From the NCBI GenBank assembly GCA_965153455.1, contig OZ234493.1:21070213-21134212 (forward strand): a stretch of 64,000 bases of DNA. Reading direction: 5' to 3'. Positions 10,120 through 29,436 of this stretch are shown piece after piece (within the stretch, counting starts at the first letter, position 1; each line of letters opens with the position of its first letter). Source of the DNA: Sphagnum compactum (taxonomy: Eukaryota). The position numbers and the translations under genes are program-made. The notes beneath the pieces were generated by a model. That model ran no database searches and was not told the origin of the DNA. It saw only the letters and a list, made by a program, of their open reading frames with translations.

Positions 10120-11274
<1,155 letters not shown>

Positions 11275-11487
11275 TTAATCTTCCAAGACAGAAAGAAAGG
11301 AAGAAAGAAAGAAACAACACACCTCTAATCCAACCACCGAAGAAGTCGCAACAACAACAGAACTAGTATCAAACGAACCGAAATTTGGACCAAACTTCGA
11401 CCAGAGTAGCTTGAATGCGATAGAGAGAGAAGAAGAAATGCAACAAGCAACTACTAAAATTGAATGAGAAGATAGAAGAAGCGCTCG

Positions 11488-15900: not shown

Positions 15901-17449
15901 ATTTATTAGAAAGAACTTCAAGGATATAAATTTATATTTACCTTTCATATTTTTGGCCCATTTCCAACCAACATTTCCATTGGATTAGACTCTTTACATT
16001 TTGATCATTCAACATACCCATTCTATCAACTTAACCATATAAAACCTTTAACCATTTTTTGATGCCTTCTTTTTTGAAACATTTTTATGGTAAATGTTTA
16101 TTATAATTTGATCGCCTTCTATTAATATAACATGGAATCACATAATTTATCATAATCAAAACTATTCTTCCTTTTCTCAAAGTTATCACCTTATTAACTC
16201 TGATAATTGTTTTAACATTGTCCAATACGTTGAACCCAATTTGTTTCTATACATAAATCACTTTCAAATTCAACCACATTACCATAGTACTTTGGCCAAT
16301 TCGATAATCCTTTGTTGAAAATTTAATTAATTTTCAAGTTTTCAATTTGACACCTTTGTTTTAATTTTTTTATTTTCAACAAAAATTTTGAATATTTTTT
16401 TGCATTTTGAGAATATCAAAAATTTACCCAAGTTTAATCTCTTTTTTTGGTCCTTTTTTGTTTGATTTTTTTATTGGTAGTTCAATTTTTTTGTTGCAGA
16501 TTTGTTGGTTTAACGTTCATGGCATATCTTTAGGATTCAAGATTGATTATTCAAGAACTCCTTTACTTAAGAGCATTCTTGGTACCTACCTTTTCTTAGT
16601 GAAAGAGTTGACAATAGAGAGTTTGCACTAAAGGCACTTTGCTATTATTCTATTTGGGTGTGAATGAAAATACTAGAGAAAAAATGGAAATAGATCATTT
16701 GTAGAATAATCTTGCTTCGTCTATTTTGTAAAGTTCCTAGTTTGCATTTAAGACTTTAATGTGTATCTACCTATTAAGGAGCATGTGAATGAAAAAAATT
16801 GTTAGCTTATTTTTTGTTTAACATATTTTAGCTCAAGAGTTTTTTTATGTTGAGGAGCAAAAATATTGAAAAAACTAAATTGGTTATTATGGTAATTTGG
16901 TATATATAAATACCTACAACAAAAGCAACATAAAACATCAACAAGGTTATTCAAGTTCGTCACACAAAATGAACACCAAAGTTTTTTAAAACATGAAGGT
17001 GAATTGTTGGAAAAAGTTGCACAAAAGAGAAATATCAAGTGTATAGTGCAGAAACATCTAATTGGTCGCCCTATGAAATTCAAAACAACTCTACAAGCAA
17101 ACCAAATGATCACACAATAGTCAAATGAAGAACAAACAAGAAATCAATCACATGTGCACAAGCATTGGACATATGTCAACTGGTTGCAACAAGATTTGTG
17201 GCCACCCAAAGTGGTAGCAATCAAGAAATACCACGACAACAAAATTGACACCTTCCATCTCTTGAAAATTGCTTATAGGAAACCATGATGTCCTAATCCT
17301 TATGAAAAAACTGGATAAACCAACCTTTATGATTGGTTTATAGATAAAGGAAAAATTAAAGCCAAGTATGTCCATGTAGCTGCATACAAGTTGAAACCAG
17401 GAAGAAAAATTTACCAATACTTGAAAACCATCCAATATTGAGAGATTCA

Positions 17450-18497
17450 ATTGTAGCCATGTTGTAAAAGATGAAGGAGGCAAGCTAGCCCCTAACAACT
17501 TCCACAATCCAACCTATAATTTGTGAAATGATTGAATCATTGGCCCTTGATGTGCTCTGTGACAACAAAGATAATGGGTTTAAAGTTATTCAAGTATGGA
17601 TTCATCAATTCATGAAACATTACATGAATTGGATTTTTAGGGTTTACAATAGCTAACAAACTTTCATTAGATTGGGAAGAACAAGGATAGTTCATGGCTT
17701 ACCATATTACTTGCCTAGTTAAGGCTTACAACATTCCACCTTCACTTGTTGTCAATAGTGATAAGATCAACATACATTTGGTACCTACATCACGAAAATG
17801 CACATGGGAAAGTAGGGGCTCCAAACACATTCATGTGCTTGGCATAAAAGACAAAAGGCAAGTGACTATGGTAATATTTTCATTTGCAACATGACTGTTG
17901 TTGCCACTACAAGTGCTTTTACAGGCATTACGCCAAGAACATTGCTACCAAACAATCAAAGAAAATCAATGTGTGTGGCAAATGGGTGGGATCACTCACC
18001 TATAGTGAAAACCATTGGTGCGTTTTGTGGAGATTGTCATGGTGCCTTACTGCCAAGCTCGAATTGAATCATCTAGATTGCAAACAAATCAAATAATGAT
18101 TTGGTTGTTAGATTGCCCGAATGTACACAAAAGTTAAGAATTCTAGGGTTGGATAAAAGATAAACTTCCAAACATTTTGGTTATTTTTGTATCAGCAGAT
18201 TGTACCAATGTTTTACAACCAACTCATGTCATACTACAGTGCCCACTCAAGCATGCATTCAAAATGGAGTTCAACAACTAGACAAAATGGGTCATCGAGG
18301 AGCAAATTGAAAGTGGCAAAAAACCAAATGTTGATTTCAAAATGAGTAATTTAAAACCACGCATATGTGAGTGGTTACACAATGCGTGGAAAGAATTGAG
18401 AAACAAAGAAACAATCATCTTAAAAAGGTGGGAAAAAACAAGGCTTGTAAAAGCTTGGAGAAGTGATTTTCAACTTGCTACCACAGAAGCAAACACA
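17450..18497 (+). pseudogene. pogo/Tc1-mariner (DDE_1-like) transposase remnant
   Basis: Fragments YNIPPSLVVNSDKINIHLVP..TWESRGSKHIHVLGIKDKRQVT, WLLDCPNVH and IFVSADCTNVLQPTHVILQCPLKHAFK match the pogo-type DDD core layout; multiple stops and frameshifts. Confidence 0.75.
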
Positions 18498-18561
18498 GTT
18501 AACATAGCAATAGAGAAATAATTGTGTTTGCTTCTGTGGTAGCAAGTTGAAAATCACTTCT
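18459..18561. repeat. Perfect 39-bp inverted repeat with 25-nt spacer
   Basis: agaagtgattttcaacttgctaccacagaagcaaacaca (18459-18497) and its exact reverse complement (18523-18561). Confidence 0.95.
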
Positions 18562-20673
18562 AAACCCATGCAAATTCAACAACCTTGAAGGTGTTATTCT
18601 AGGACGAAGCATACATCATGAGTTGTTACTTTTATGGCCATTTCCTAAGCTTGGGCTCTTACTCTTCCAATTTTGAATAGGCATCAAGAAGAGCAAGGGA
18701 TGTTTATTATTATAGCCAAAATAATGAACCCTTGACAATGGGGTCTATTTCCAAATCTAACAAAGGTACCCAAGAAGGAATGTCTGCATTGAAAGAGATA
18801 AATGAACGCTCTTTGGTGCATGACTATTTGAAGCTTTCATGGTTTGTTGAGATTGTGTTAAAAGGCTCAATGTGTTTGATTCTTGCATTTGTTTTAGCCA
18901 TGATAATGATGTAGGTTTTGGACATTGATCTTGATAACTCCTTTCTACCCAATTAAAATATTGTTCATATCAACCTTGTTGTATATTATGTTGGGTCATG
19001 TTCAATTTTTAACAACAACAACAACAACATGCAACAACTTCTTATATGTTAGCAATAACTCTGATATAGAAGGCAACATAATTATGAATAATTTTATGCT
19101 ATGAAGCTTAAGATTTGGTGAGGGAGATTCAAGCTTTATGTCACTTTGGCAAGGACAACGACAAGATCAAGGTAGAAAAAATGAGATTCCATCGAACAAG
19201 GTGAGCATAGTTTAGCCCTTATCGATGAAACAACTAGTTGAAGTATTGTCAACTTCTCTAGGAGGGGGAGGCACCAAAGTTGCAAGTGGAGTACTTAATG
19301 TTGCATATACAAAAACACCATGACAACAAAAGTTCAGGAAAGTAAAAAAAAATAGTGCTAACAATAGTGTATAGCCTTGGATTTGCAATAAAACAATGAT
19401 GGGATTTTTGTATATTCTTTTGTTACTAGAGCATGGGTTGGTGTCGATAATCACACCACATTGCTTAGGAATGGTGAGTGCCTTGGCATTTAGCTTCGTG
19501 AGCATAATGCAAACAAACAAGGTTGGTTGATTATAAAAAATAAAGACTACTACAACAAGCGAGTGGAGGAGTGGTAGTTGGCTTTGTGATGTAAATATAA
19601 TATTTCTTTCTTGATTCCTACTTGAGTGAAATTGAGATGATCTCATGTAAAGTTGGACTTCTTGATACAACTTCATGCCATTGAAGATTAAAAAATTGTT
19701 TATTGGCTTACCATGATCGGGTTCATGTATTTTGTATTGTTTTTGCAGGTTTGACATTGGCTTTTACATCCACAAAAACACCCCCTACACTAACACCCCC
19801 AACCCCATTCTTAGTTGGTAGTTCATTAGCGTCATTGTCATCTTCAATTCTCTTGCCTCCTAGAGTTGCTTATCCCCCAAAAGCTACCTTACCACCACCA
19901 ACATCTCTTCCTCCTCCTCCTCCACTATTAGGAATATGTAGCATCAGTATTTACCGAAATATAAAATATAAAACAATTATAAAAGTCTTGAGTACAATTT
20001 TACCAAAGTTAGGCAATTAGTTTACCTAACCTAAGATGTCGTCCAACTGAAAAAAAGTAGGCACCTTACTGAAATTTGACAAGGAAATATTTGGTAAGAT
20101 CTTGTTGAATTTGGTTATCATTACTTTTGACTTGCTAAATGGTTGGGTCTGCCAATACGACATAGGTTCGAATTATCTAAAGGTTTGAAAAGGTAAGAAG
20201 AAGAATGAAGATATAAAGGGATACTCTTTTGGGGGGGACTTAGAACCAGATATTGTACTAAGATTTCATAATACACACATCAATATTATTGATTTTCTCT
20301 TATGTATTTTATCCATGCATGCTTCCATTTCTATTCTGTTTGTTGATCATAGAAAAAAACTTCATAATCTGTTTTTACGACTCAAGTATATGGTATTGTG
20401 TGTAATATGGTAGACAAGAACCCAACGGTGATGTAGAACTTAATTCCTACTAAAATCATCGCTAACAATTTGGTAAAAGACATTTGTTGAACAAATATGT
20501 TTTGGCTTGTTATGTGAATGTATAGTTTGATGCATTTATGTGTACTTTTGCTAGATTTATAGTTGGTAAAATGACTAATCAAAAACTATGAAATGACTTG
20601 AAATATCATATAGGATATGATATGGAAAATGATGTCCATCACTTTACATTTGATGTGTCTAATTTTGCCAATT

Positions 20674-23220
20674 GAACCTATTGGCGGGAACCCGGGTTCC
20701 CAAACGGGACCCGGGTCTTTCAAAAGATCTATATCTCCGCAACTAGTCATCAGAACCATCTCGTAATAGGTTCAATCGTCTTCTCTTATTCAATGAAGTC
20801 ATCTTGCGATCGGTCCAATTTGTATTTTCACTGTTTACGCCTTCCGGAAAAACGATAGGAGCGACGACTATCCAGGCACAGTGCCGGAGGCATTCTTCCG
20901 CGGGCGCCCGACCTTTGGCTTCTCCACCCCAATCGCCTTCTTAAAAGGCGCTACGCGCGTGCTCTTGCTACTAGATCGTGTGGCTGCCACGTCCTCATCT
21001 TCCGAAGAATCGGACAAACCCTCAGGAATAGAAGGGTAGTAGGAAAGTACTTCGGGAGGGATAGAAAAGTACTTCTTGGACAACGATTTGAGCTTCTTGT
21101 TGGTCAGCTGCTCCTTAAGCTCCACACGAGGGAGCTTGACCATGTCAACCGACGTGACGTCATCAATGGACTTGACGCCACTTCTAAACAAATCGAAAAG
21201 AATCGCTTGACGAACAGAATCAATATTCTCGAGAAGAAACATCGGAAACTGGACGGCCTCGTTGTCGGGCGTACTTACGAGATGGCGCATGCTAACAATG
21301 CCCTGGTCGATCTCAAAAAAATAGTTGCCAGTGTAGTTCGGTGGCATAGACTTGAAGTACTTCTTCAGAAAAGAGGTCCAATCGCCAAAGAAGGGTCGTC
21401 GCGATGACTGATGATCCAGGAATTCGGCAGAGACAGACTTAATGGCGTTGAGCTCAGATACAATCCTGCTGAGGGTGTAGAGGTTCTGGGCACGCATCTT
21501 GTTTCGACACCAGGCAACGACACGATCGACCTGGTTGTGAGAGTGGCAAGGGATAAGAAAAAGAAGAGCGACCTTGTCATAAAACAGGAGAGATAACAGC
21601 GCATAGAACATGAAGACCACCTTCGACTTATTTTGACCAACGCAGTTGTCGAGGATCAGCAGGAACATCTTAGGCGAACGGTCGGCACGTTCTTGACGAA
21701 GTCGAAGATGAAAGAGTAAACGAAGACTGCACAGGGCGTCAGCGCCTTTGCCTTGACCACGCTCATCGTAGATCAGAACATTATTGCGATTGGCGGTGAT
21801 GTCGGAGATGATGAAGTTCTGCATCATGAGATTGGAATTGAAGTAGTGAGCAGAAGGACGTTGATGGCCATAGAAAGGAAGCGGGAAGCTGCCGCCGAAA
21901 TCTTCAATCTGAATCTGGATCTCAGGGAAGGCGTCGTCGATAGGATCAGGAGGCGCATCATCAATGGTATCGGGAATAATCGCATTCGGGACAAGTTGCT
22001 GGGGTGCATTAGCTGCAATGTACTGCTTAACGAACCCCGACATGAACCGACGCTGATCAATAGCGGCCTAAAGGTGCATCCCCTTCTCCAGAACCAGATG
22101 TTCCCGCTCTTCAAGCGGGAGATCGTCACGAGCGAGTTGAATATCAATGCGAACACAAGAATCACAAACATCTTCTGCCGTCCTTGTCAGGCGAACACCA
22201 GGTTGGTGCAACTTGACGTACTGGGTCCATCAGGAAAAGCTCATCACTCGCCGCTCGAGAGACACCATTTTCTTTTCGTACCGCTTCCAAAGCTCCGTCC
22301 AGGTCAGCTTAGCCTCCATGACATATTGGCGAGGTCGTCGATGCGAACAGGGAAATCCATCCTCCAGCTCCCACATCTTGCAGTCCTCAATGAATGCAGT
22401 TAGATCGTCTGATGATAGAGCGTGATGTGGAACTTTCATAGGACGGCGAGTATGGCTTCCGTCCCACGTCCCGTCCTTATGAATCTTTCTCAATCGTGAC
22501 ACACGAGAACCACCAACACCAAGGAGGGCCTTAATCTCTCGATTCGAATAACCTTGCGCCATCAATCCCAGAATGACTCCTTCGCCCTGCTCCCTTTCCG
22601 CCTCGTCGTATCCCGTCTTCATCGCGTTCCACGTCTCTTTCAATGCGTTGAGACTCTCTTCTCCCATCTTCTTCACCACTCTCTCCAATGCGTTCGTCTT
22701 CCGATCCGTCTTCTTCTTGTTGATCTGCTGCACGCACTTATACGATCCACTGATGCCGCCATGTTTGCGCTTCTGGAGTAAGGATTCACCGGCGGTCAAA
22801 CTCGAGGTTGTTGTATCAGACAACGTGGGCGGCTTCTCGACTAGTGACGAAAATGCGAGTAGTTGATCACACCATCGGCCAATTATACTACAATTCTCCC
22901 AGATCTCAAGATAATCCAAGATTGTTGCCATGGCCTCCTGAATGTTGCCCTTGTTCTTCTCAATCGAGCTCAGGTCATTATTGTCAAATCCCCAACAGTG
23001 TATTTTCATTTTCAATTCAATCGAACATTCCTCCTGGCTCCGCTTAGACATTGCTTCTGTTGCTCCAGCGAGGTCTGGAGCTCCTGCCAGGCCAGTAATA
23101 GCCCCGTACGGCATCTGCCACGGGGCCCGAGTGCTATTTTAGGTACCCTCCAAAAAAAAAAAAAAATTGTCTTCTGACATTGAGTTTTTTGCGGGACCCC
23201 GGGTTCCCGCCAATAGGTTC
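20674..23220 (-). mobile_element. Full-length Sola-like (probably Sola1) cut-and-paste DNA transposon, 2547 bp
   Basis: TIR GAACCTATTGGCGGGAACCCGGG(T/G)TCCC (28 bp, 1 mismatch) at both ends; AATT on both flanks (20670-20673, 23221-23224), matching the AWWT target of Sola1; abrupt rise in GC content; internal DDD transposase. Confidence 0.88.
20835..23114 (-). pseudogene. Sola-type DDD transposase, ~759 codons, three in-frame stops
   Basis: ORFs 22230-23114 and 20868-22043 are in one frame; stops at 22230-32 (TGA), 22068-70 (TAG) and 20868-70 (TAG), next stop TAA at 20835-37. Motifs: HTH-like GYSNREIKALLGVGGSRVSRL, DVCDSC, IEDFGGSFPLP, YDERGQGKGADALCS, LILDNCVGQNK, FLIPCHSHNQVDR, AT-hook GRPRK. 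Confidence 0.85.
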
Positions 23221-24517
23221 AATTAAAGCAAGTTGTTTAGATTGATGGCTTGTTTTTCTTCCCATTTTTCACAACAACAAAACAAGAGGAGTCAAATTGG
23301 GTATCATGGTGATTGAAAGAAAATACCCAAGTTCAAACATTAAAACATGTGAACGTTGAAGTTCAAAAAGTAAACATTGAAAAGTTACCATGTAATTAAA
23401 CTAACCTCAACCAAGGAATCATGATTGTAGTGTTCATTAGGACCCTTCCTTCTTTTCATCCTATATTCAAGTTGTCAATACTTGAAACCTATGCAAATAT
23501 TTCATAGCAAATTCAAGGCATTCATCAAGATATACCCTTATACTATAAAACCTCCCAATTGTGCCATGTTTTCAACATAAACTGGGAGATTTCATGTGAA
23601 AGCATTCCAATGACAATACTTTATCAAATTCATCAACAACTTTTTGATAAAACATTTATCGATGAACACGCCATCATACTGAACCTCACTACCATCAAAT
23701 TTTTGCCATTCCTACCCATTGGGGCTCCTTGCTCTAGGCAACGATGCACTTTTTGCCATTATCACTGGAAATCCCCATTAAATTTTTTTTCATGCATTTC
23801 TTCTTGTTGACAAGAAGGAATATTTATATTTATTTTGGTTATTCAATAGGCAAAAGAGGACCTCTAGAGGTCCAAAAAGATCTATTTTTTTACAATATAG
23901 AGAATGAAATGTATCATAATATCAAAAAATGACAAGGAAAATTCCATTTCCAACAAGATAAGACTTACATCAACCACAATGTGGACAAAATATTATTATT
24001 GATATTTAATAATATTGTTGGATTATGATCATTGCCACGAGTTGCCCTTGTGGCTTTGAATGTGATGTAAATTAATGTGTTTATTTCATTGGATGGGTTG
24101 CAATCTAAAAAATTAAGCCCTAAATTATTACAAAAAAAATATGGGGATCTTTTTTGGGGGGAGAAAAAAAATTTAGTTTCCTTTGGAAGTGTGACAAATT
24201 TTTTTGAAAGGTTTCAAACTAAGATATGCACACACAAAAACCCAAAGAACAAATGAAACCTTGGAAAGCTAACCCAAAAAAAACACTAATGAATTTGTGT
24301 AGCTTAGACACGAATCATTGATCGTGCATTTTTTAAAATTTGAAATGCTAATTATAACCAATATTAAATAGGTATAGACAAAAAAAATCATATCAAATCA
24401 ACTTTTTCAACACTGCATGTTTATTTTTAAAATAATACTATATTAATCTTTCTCAAATTTATATTGAACAATGCATTGCACAATAAGGACATCTTTACAT
24501 TTAAGTTTGCAGTGATC

Positions 24518-25018: not shown

Positions 25019-25609
25019 ATATGCCCTATTTGTTTGTTTTTAAAATTAAAAATAATTCTTAAATTCTTAATATTATTTATTATTTTAAATTCCACCTCTT
25101 GCTTGTGCCACGTGCTAGTTTCAGCGAGTAGCACGTGCCTGTCGCACGGAGACAGGCTCCCCAGGTGCTGGCTGCGGGGGGGTAGGGTGGGGAAGGAGAG
25201 GGGCTTGTGTGCCATACCTCTGTGTGTTTGAAGAATGAGAACTTTGTGATCAGGTAACGAGATCACACGATTCCAGTTATGATGAATAGATTATCTTCCA
25301 AAGTATTTTTATGCGAAATTTGAGCGTTTGGATCGCGAATCCCATTTCTCTGGAGCATTTGAGGCTGCGAATTGGGCGGCAACACGTGGCTTTCGATCTC
25401 TCCAGTTTCGAGTTTTTCGAGGAAAGCGGGCGAGAGAGGGGGAAGAGAGAAGAGAGAAGCTCGCGGATCGAAAGATTTTGTCGCAGAATTGCAGAGCTGG
25501 ATCTAGAGAGACAAGAAGCTTTTTTTGTGAAGAATTCTTTGCAGCTCTTCTTGGGTGTTTGAGAAGAGGAGGAGGAGGAGGAGGAGGAGGAGAGAACGAG
25601 AACAAGAAG

Positions 25610-29436
<3,827 letters not shown>

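Follow-up and report, generated by a model that had tools for sequence, protein, structure and literature searches.

Does the transposase of a peat moss DNA transposon end in a docking site for PCNA, the replication clamp of its host, hidden in the sequence behind a stop codon? The question is raised by a 64,000-nucleotide stretch of contig OZ234493.1 of Sphagnum compactum (hereafter the window), in which positions 20674-23220 of the minus strand, 2547 bp in all, are a whole, defective copy of a Sola1 DNA transposon. The original prediction, made from the letters of the window, was that the transposase frame continues past a TAG into a PCNA-interacting protein (PIP) box that lies next to an AT-hook. 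The explanation that we favor, with a probability of roughly 0.72, is that one branch of Sola1 would have added a two-part host-docking module to the C-terminus of a cut-and-paste transposase. In this module, the last folded helices would be followed by a disordered tether of 35-70 residues, by a basic G-R-P block and, 11-15 residues further on, by a PIP box of the form Q-x-S-I-x-x-F-F/L, often placed at or near the C-terminus.

The minus-strand frame reads exactly as had been claimed, GGA TAG TCG TCG CTC CTA TCG TTT TTC CGG AAG GCG TAA, with the TAG at 20870-20868, the TAA at 20837-20835, and S-S-L-L-S-F-F-R-K-A between the two. The parts of the tail are the following:

20922-21032, minus strand: acidic/basic linker that follows the last pair of conserved helices, unconserved in the alignment, predicted disordered tether
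20895-20921, minus strand: basic G-R-P block, AT-hook-like, residues 711-719, with the G-R-P core at 20901-20909
20847-20870, minus strand: PIP box, residues 728-735; the Gln codon is TAG here, and the motif stands behind this stop

In the predicted structure of the transposase, residues 682-738 have predicted local distance difference test (pLDDT) scores below 50, indicating predicted disorder, and a short helix is seen at residues 731-735.

A search of the genome DNA with the element gave four matches, namely the window copy and three siblings at 95-97% identity. All three siblings have Gln at the TAG site (CAG, CAA and CAG) and terminate at the same TAA. Their motifs are QSSLLSFF, QSLLLSFF and QSSLLSFL, two of them exact canonical PIP boxes and one ending in F-L; the canonical consensus is Q-x-x-[ILM]-x-x-F-[FY], with a 1-4-7-8 spacing (PMC5371812). 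Contigs from public runs that cover position 20870 have a Gln codon in all cases listed (five in run X12, one in X1 and two in X2, the last two being RNA libraries whose contigs indicate presence only). From run X19 (polyA raw reads, about 12% of them covered), no read was placed. A C>T decay confined to the window copy has produced the TAG at 20868-20870. There are two additional premature stops upstream in the same frame, TGA at 22232 and TAG at 22070, which had escaped the original prediction; both are C>T changes, and siblings that cover these sites do not have them. Stop-codon read-through or recoding was ruled out, because the stop is a private change of this copy, with two more stops ahead of it.

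We examined the tails of database relatives for traces of the same module. From 188 relatives, 115 were anchored at the last conserved helix pair on the basis of the core only, with the tail left unused, and 73 unanchored ones were dropped; 102 of the anchored proteins have at least 35 residues past the anchor, and 92 were left after a 70% identity filter. One of the relative searches used a query that included the tail, which may slightly favor tail-bearing matches. The strict pattern Q-x-x-[ILM]-x-x-[FY]-[FY] is found in 21 of these 92 tails, against a mean of 0.12 and a maximum of 3 in 1000 shuffles; in the bodies of the same proteins it occurs once in 37,554 residues. The PIP consensus has only four defined positions, and reading past a stop could happen to spell such a short motif. 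This explanation by chance is refuted by the excess over shuffles, as well as by the siblings with their Gln and shared TAA.

A more inclusive PIP-like motif of the Q-x-S-I-x-x-F-F/L type, in which G-R-P is not required, was detected in 63 of the 92 tails (shuffle mean 1.2, maximum 6, n=1000), and G-R-[PS] in 58. With a looser pattern, both parts occur in order in 46 of 92 (shuffle mean 0.06), at a spacing of 11-15 residues in 44 of the 46. When the PIP-like pattern is made independent of G-R-P, both parts are present in 47 of the 92 relatives, the PIP-like motif alone in 16, G-R-P alone in 11, and neither in 18. In an alignment of 25 relatives, the linker before the module varies in length and cannot be aligned. 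The module behind it stands out as a conserved island, and this implies selection. The PIP box itself is kept across relatives at 27-59% identity; this also indicates selection and makes docking on PCNA likely, so that the homologs have borne out this part of the original prediction.

Several properties of the motif are of interest in this respect. Position 3 is Ser or Thr in 57 of the 63 PIP-like motifs, and the final two residues are F-F in 30, F-L in 16 and Y-F in 7. The motif ends within 10 residues of the C-terminus in 28 of 63. The 14 residues before it have a mean net charge of +3.0, of which the nearest seven have only +0.4; positive flanks are reported to increase PCNA affinity (PMC6881253). 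Verified PIP boxes are mostly found in disordered regions, are often terminal, and vary widely from the consensus (PMC6881253). Five relatives (P0062, P0063, P0077, P0095 and P0114) have extra C-terminal modules after the PIP-like motif, judged by eye to be of Tudor or WW type. A full-length PCNA that fits the host exons was identified (P0193, residues 34-296).

PIP-like peptides cross-react with the 9-1-1 clamp, the C-terminal domain of Rev1, and MLH1; PIP degrons carry T-D in positions 5 and 6 as well as a basic +4 residue, and MLH1-type peptides follow the pattern S-x-[YF]-F. The tail may be a real linear motif for one of these other partners, or a PCNA-dependent degron that limits transposase levels, and the better preservation of Ser/Thr at position 3 than of Gln at position 1 (57 as compared to 39 of 63) is in line with another partner. 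Against this stand the absence of the MLH1-type pattern and of the degron T-D (0 of 63 motifs each), the presence of a basic +4 residue in only 11 of 63, and the 1-4-7-8 spacing, which is that of the PIP box (PMC5371812). We regard another partner or a degron as improbable, and docking of the tail on PCNA, predicted from the sequences, as quite likely. The PIP box would occupy the front pocket of host PCNA, with Gln in the Q-pocket and residues 4, 7 and 8 in the hydrophobic pocket.

The second part of the module was called an AT-hook in the original prediction, a label that can be retained only in a weakened form. A G-R-P core with basic flanks is indeed there, in 58 of 92 tails. The canonical AT-hook is R-G-R-P, with Arg before the core; this Arg is found in two of the 58, and Val or Pro takes its place in 47 of 58. 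The Pfam AT_hook model (PF02178), run over 35 members, matched one of them, at E 1.4. The block is conserved, and AT-hook-like is a better name for it than canonical R-G-R-P AT-hook. That it stands at a fixed distance from the PIP box suggests that the two parts act together. By holding on to DNA adjacent to the clamp, or to an acidic clamp surface beside the pocket, the basic block would increase avidity, a joint action for which we judge the chances to be about even; a nuclear-import signal is an alternative role of the block, possibly an additional one.

The element that carries this tail has the following anatomy:

20670-20673, no strand: target-site duplication AATT, 3' side, identical to the four bases at 23221-23224
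20674-20701, no strand: terminal inverted repeat, beginning with GAACC; the same termini are found in the siblings and in two divergent subfamilies
20835-23051, minus strand: transposase frame of 738 codons, with three premature stops, at 22232, 22070 and 20870
21525-21902, minus strand: catalytic core with the D-D-D triad, D384 at 21900-21902, D468 at 21648-21650 and D509 at 21525-21527
23193-23220, no strand: terminal inverted repeat on the 5' side, partner in the inverted pair
23221-23224, no strand: target-site duplication AATT, 5' side, matching 20670-20673

The inverted pair 20670-20701/23193-23224 spans 32 nt including the duplication and is 97% complementary; in the family, the terminal inverted repeats, a feature of Sola1, are 28-30 bp long (GAACC...GGTTC). 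GC content is 0.50 within the copy and 0.33-0.34 in the flanks.

The only Pfam family found in the 738-codon frame is DUF7869 (E 2e-13), which spans the core of Sola1 transposases and also includes the animal clade described below. The predicted model (mean pLDDT 75.7) contains an RNase H/DDE core, which aligns with Metnase at Z 9.3 and with Mos1 at Z 9.2 (root-mean-square deviation 3.5-3.8 across 166-167 residues). D384, D468 and D509 are invariant or almost so across 25 aligned relatives. We compared the protein by eye with the consensus letters of the published Sola1 hidden Markov model (PMC5751038, supplement) and found its motifs: the first Asp with Pro eight residues on, D-n-c-x-g-q-N-k, and f-l-x-p-g-H-s. 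Sola2 was considered and rejected, as the motifs S-D-G-x-x-x-Q-Y-K-N and H-F-F-A-T-S-H-G-K, taken from an alignment in additional file 10 of PMC3627910, are not found here. The pogo/Tigger identity was likewise rejected: there is no DDE_1 and no CENP-B-type domain, Pfam giving DUF7869 alone, and the duplication is 4 bp, not TA. By each feature checked (triad, profile motifs, terminal inverted repeats and duplication), the element is a member of Sola1. The moss Physcomitrella is listed with Sola1 in a table of PMC9033089. Among named proteins, the closest is one of Sphagnum jensenii (94%). Searches of solved structures by sequence, with the family profile and with the 40-residue tail, gave no match, and a search of the ESM Atlas gave DUF7869 clusters only, all of them unnamed.

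A 4-bp target duplication, AWWT or AWDT, is the hallmark of Sola1 as reported for insects (PMC3845634). In our family the duplication agrees on both sides in six insertions (AATT, AAAT twice, AACT, AGGT and ATAT). Sixteen exact transposon ends, at 13 loci, abut A-n-n-T, with A at base -4 in 15 of 16 and T at base -1 in all 16; the tetramer is AWWT in 11 of 16. The original prediction had the AT-hook reach AT-rich targets, and a true AT-hook that directs insertions to AT-rich DNA would be compatible with clamp docking. The preference for AWWT speaks for such targeting, since A-T tetramers are the kind of site bound by AT-hooks, such as that of HMGA1 (PMC9601623). However, DNA outside the 4-bp duplication is not AT-enriched (GC 0.39, as compared to 0.34 locally), AWWT is a general hallmark of Sola1 in insects (PMC3845634), the animal clade described below has no hook in its tail, and Arg is nearly always missing before G-R-P. 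Because of the composition of these flanks in particular, steering of insertions by the hook is unlikely, and we do not uphold this part of the prediction. Further outward of the duplication, C is found at -5 in 10 of 16 and A at -6 in 10 of 16 ends (L048-L063), a hint of a longer, palindromic target preference.

The window copy has accumulated 44 private changes, 32 of which are C>T or G>A. Per site, these are most frequent in the CHG context (13 of 215), as compared to CG (8 of 312) and CHH (11 of 734). Such a pattern would be expected from decay of methylated cytosines, and CAG, the codon that became TAG, is a CHG site. The window copy is a decayed, dead Sola1 element, in which the tail module is untranslated. 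In run X12, one contig joins 20669 to 23222. It represents an allele that lacks the element and falls one base short of a perfect empty site, either because the site has diverged or because excision left a footprint.

Two more subfamilies in the genome have near-identical termini and 38-49% protein identity (L038-L046, L009-L024 and L030); ten weaker Sola-like loci, L025-L034, were left out of the reading of tails in the genome. In the subfamily at 41-49% amino-acid identity, the protein ends in QKSILQFF in three of five copies; in the other two, this Gln codon is replaced by a stop. The other subfamily is discussed below, with the evidence that speaks against docking.

How far does the tail extend within Sola1? 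The most distant match of the family, P0048, is related to the tail-bearing family at an hhalign probability of 98.9% and 22% identity. Together with its 119 best relatives, it makes up a set (the best 120 of 553, in which the named ones are insects) that represents one clade of Sola1, referred to here as the animal sister clade. It forms a separate group in the tree, with a support of 0.70 for the tail-bearing group. Among these best 120 of 553 proteins, none has a strict PIP anywhere, and they stop at a median of 15 residues past the equivalent terminal helices (n=120). A relaxed PIP-like motif is found in 5 of 120, four of these 68-92 residues from the end and one within the terminal helix; G-R-[PS] occurs in the last 100 residues of 3 of 120, in no case inside a basic block. 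The original assignment of a PIP box to a Sola transposase stands insofar as the element is Sola1, and has to be narrowed in scope: the tail motif marks one branch of Sola1, not the whole superfamily.

The sister clade also bears on the idea that the tail acts inside the transposase itself. The hydrophobic helix would pack on a partner subunit, the basic block would serve in nuclear import or as a minor-groove arm for the transposon's own ends, and the likeness to a PIP box would be incidental. The short helix at 731-735 in the model is consistent with this, as are the 11 of 92 relatives with G-R-P and no PIP-like motif, and the AT-hook-like linkers of Mos1, Tc3 and TnsB, which bind transposon ends (PMC13632737). 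Yet the sister clade has the same core and no such tail, the tether is unconserved and of variable length, and an internal helix would not be expected to retain Gln in 39 of 63 motifs and a near-terminal ending in 28 of 63. We consider this role for the tail to be rather unlikely, on a par with that of another docking partner.

Several observations weigh against the clamp-docking explanation. Gln at position 1, the residue for the Q-pocket, is present in only 39 of the 63 PIP-like motifs, and 18 of 63 end in F-L or Y-L. No PIP-like motif is found in 29 of the 92 relatives, including the 18 with neither part, some of which may be frameshifted or mispredicted. In the second of the two additional Sphagnum subfamilies, six of seven readable copies have H-K-S-I-x-x-Y-F, and Gln is found in one; an eighth copy is frameshifted. 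The tail-less animal sister clade means that such transposases need no tail in general. Finally, the functional relevance of PIP boxes in eukaryotic DNA transposases has been called unclear (PMC5371812).

The named hosts in the tail-bearing branch are peat moss, a liverwort (a fragment that does not cover the tail), Phytophthora, an aphelid, and lampreys. The lamprey proteins (P0004, P0445-P0454, P0009 and P0050) are long open Sola1-derived frames in Lampetra, Lethenteron and Petromyzon; they are about 46% identical to the moss transposase over nearly the full length, and some are located at neighboring loci. The PIP tail is missing from all 11 members of the Lampetra/Lethenteron cluster, in which Glu replaces the first Asp of the catalytic triad. 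A maximum-likelihood tree of 32 sequences places the lamprey proteins as the sister group of the two other moss subfamilies together with two further proteins (bootstrap 100). This placement fits a movement across kingdoms, followed by domestication with loss of the tail, and the lamprey proteins may be regarded as candidate domesticated genes from a horizontally acquired element.

Elsewhere in the window, a stop-ridden frame at 17004-18500 (plus strand) looks by eye like a remnant of a pogo-type transposase, with no Pfam match when read through the stops; at its end, 18459-18561, there is a 43-nt inverted repeat, 98% complementary, with a 17-nt loop. Exons of a gene for a DnaJ/DnaJ-X protein are found at 25286-28148 (plus strand), about 2 kb from the 5' end of the Sola1 element. 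Five tandem units of 228 bp, a period that we take to be that of polyubiquitin, occupy 10127-11338.

The tail-bearing branch shares with other Sola1 elements the single D-D-D transposase, the profile motifs, the terminal inverted repeats, and the 4-bp, mostly AWWT duplication; as compared to the animal clade, it alone has the tether, the G-R-P block and the PIP box. PIP boxes are reported in Drosophila pogo, human Tigger and Arabidopsis Lemi1, with a putative one in Ac, and also in LINE-1 ORF2p (PMC5371812). The pogo motif is C-terminal (PMC4231638), and pogo is a two-hybrid interactor of PCNA (PMC5371812, PMC4231638). A DDE/D transposase with a C-terminal PIP box is common to pogo, Tigger, Lemi1 and the Sola1 branch. 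However, pogo belongs to another superfamily, with DDE_1 and a CENP-B-type domain and a TA target instead of the 4 bp seen here, and the passages of PMC5371812 and PMC4231638 that were consulted mention no paired G-R-P block for it. The likeness between pogo and the Sola1 branch is convergence.

Clamp binding and its effect on transposition have been shown by experiment for IS1634, Tn7 TnsE and LINE-1 ORF2p (PMC5371812, PMC4549789). For IS1634, peptides of the transposase bind both beta and archaeal PCNA, with more transposition where beta binding is stronger (PMC4549789). All of these share with the Sola1 branch a clamp motif, often C-terminal; unlike it, they are prokaryotic elements or a retroelement with proven function, whereas clamp binding by the Sola1 tail is predicted. 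The closest counterpart in layout and letters is PolD3 (p66, Cdc27, Pol32), in which the PIP forms the very end of a long unstructured C-terminal region (QGSIMSWF, QVSITGFF; PMC10787639), sharing the pattern Q-x-S-I-x-x-aromatic-F. PolD3, however, is a host replication protein, and the likeness is mimicry or convergence. The last positions of Pfam CDC27 are matched weakly by one sibling tail (E 0.097, 1 of 35 members). With the AT-hook of HMGA and the linkers of Mos1, Tc3 and TnsB, the block of this branch shares the G-R-P core and basic flanks; unlike these linkers (PMC13632737), it is C-terminal and not between DNA-binding domains, and it has mostly Val or Pro before Gly (47 of 58). No literature linking Sola to PCNA or to an AT-hook was found in a search that stopped short of Repbase Reports and most subscription journals. 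The clamp-docking tail is apparently undescribed for Sola; the strategy of a clamp tag is itself already known.

What would such a tail do for the transposon? The original prediction coupled transposition to replication or repair forks, and the branch would probably couple its jumping to host DNA replication or repair, as far as this can be judged from its protein sequences. Whether docking matters for transposition, be it through S-phase timing, insertion behind forks, or hand-over of gaps and breaks, we consider to be finely balanced. More speculatively, the tether may guide the enzyme to clamp-loaded DNA, newly copied or gapped; S phase would then be the time of excision or insertion, and clamp-bound repair enzymes would take over the donor break and the 4-base gaps. 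A still more far-reaching version, which we hold to be doubtful, is that the PolD3-like docking tail and the G-R-P arm at a fixed distance from it form a sensor of clamp-loaded DNA. PCNA is highly conserved, which would make such an adaptor workable in unrelated hosts and would have let the branch cross kingdoms (peat moss, liverwort, oomycete, aphelid and lampreys), with tail-less Sola1 mostly bound to animals; in the lamprey copies, seemingly host genes, the tail would have been lost and the first catalytic Asp replaced.

Clamp binding matters for bacterial transposons and LINE-1, and the case for eukaryotic cut-and-paste elements consists of pogo and a few sightings of the motif. The Sola1 branch would add to it an independent gain of the clamp motif in a different superfamily. 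Dozens of divergent sequences support this gain, and there are built-in controls, namely the tail-less sister clade, the subfamilies with changed Gln, and the lamprey copies that have lost the tail. This permits a clear-cut test of two questions: do such transposons use the replication clamp to time or aim their jumps, and does this aid moves between distant hosts? If the tail is indeed a sensor of clamp-loaded DNA, then the sister clades with and without it would be a natural experiment on PCNA docking, on the timing of transposition, and on host range.

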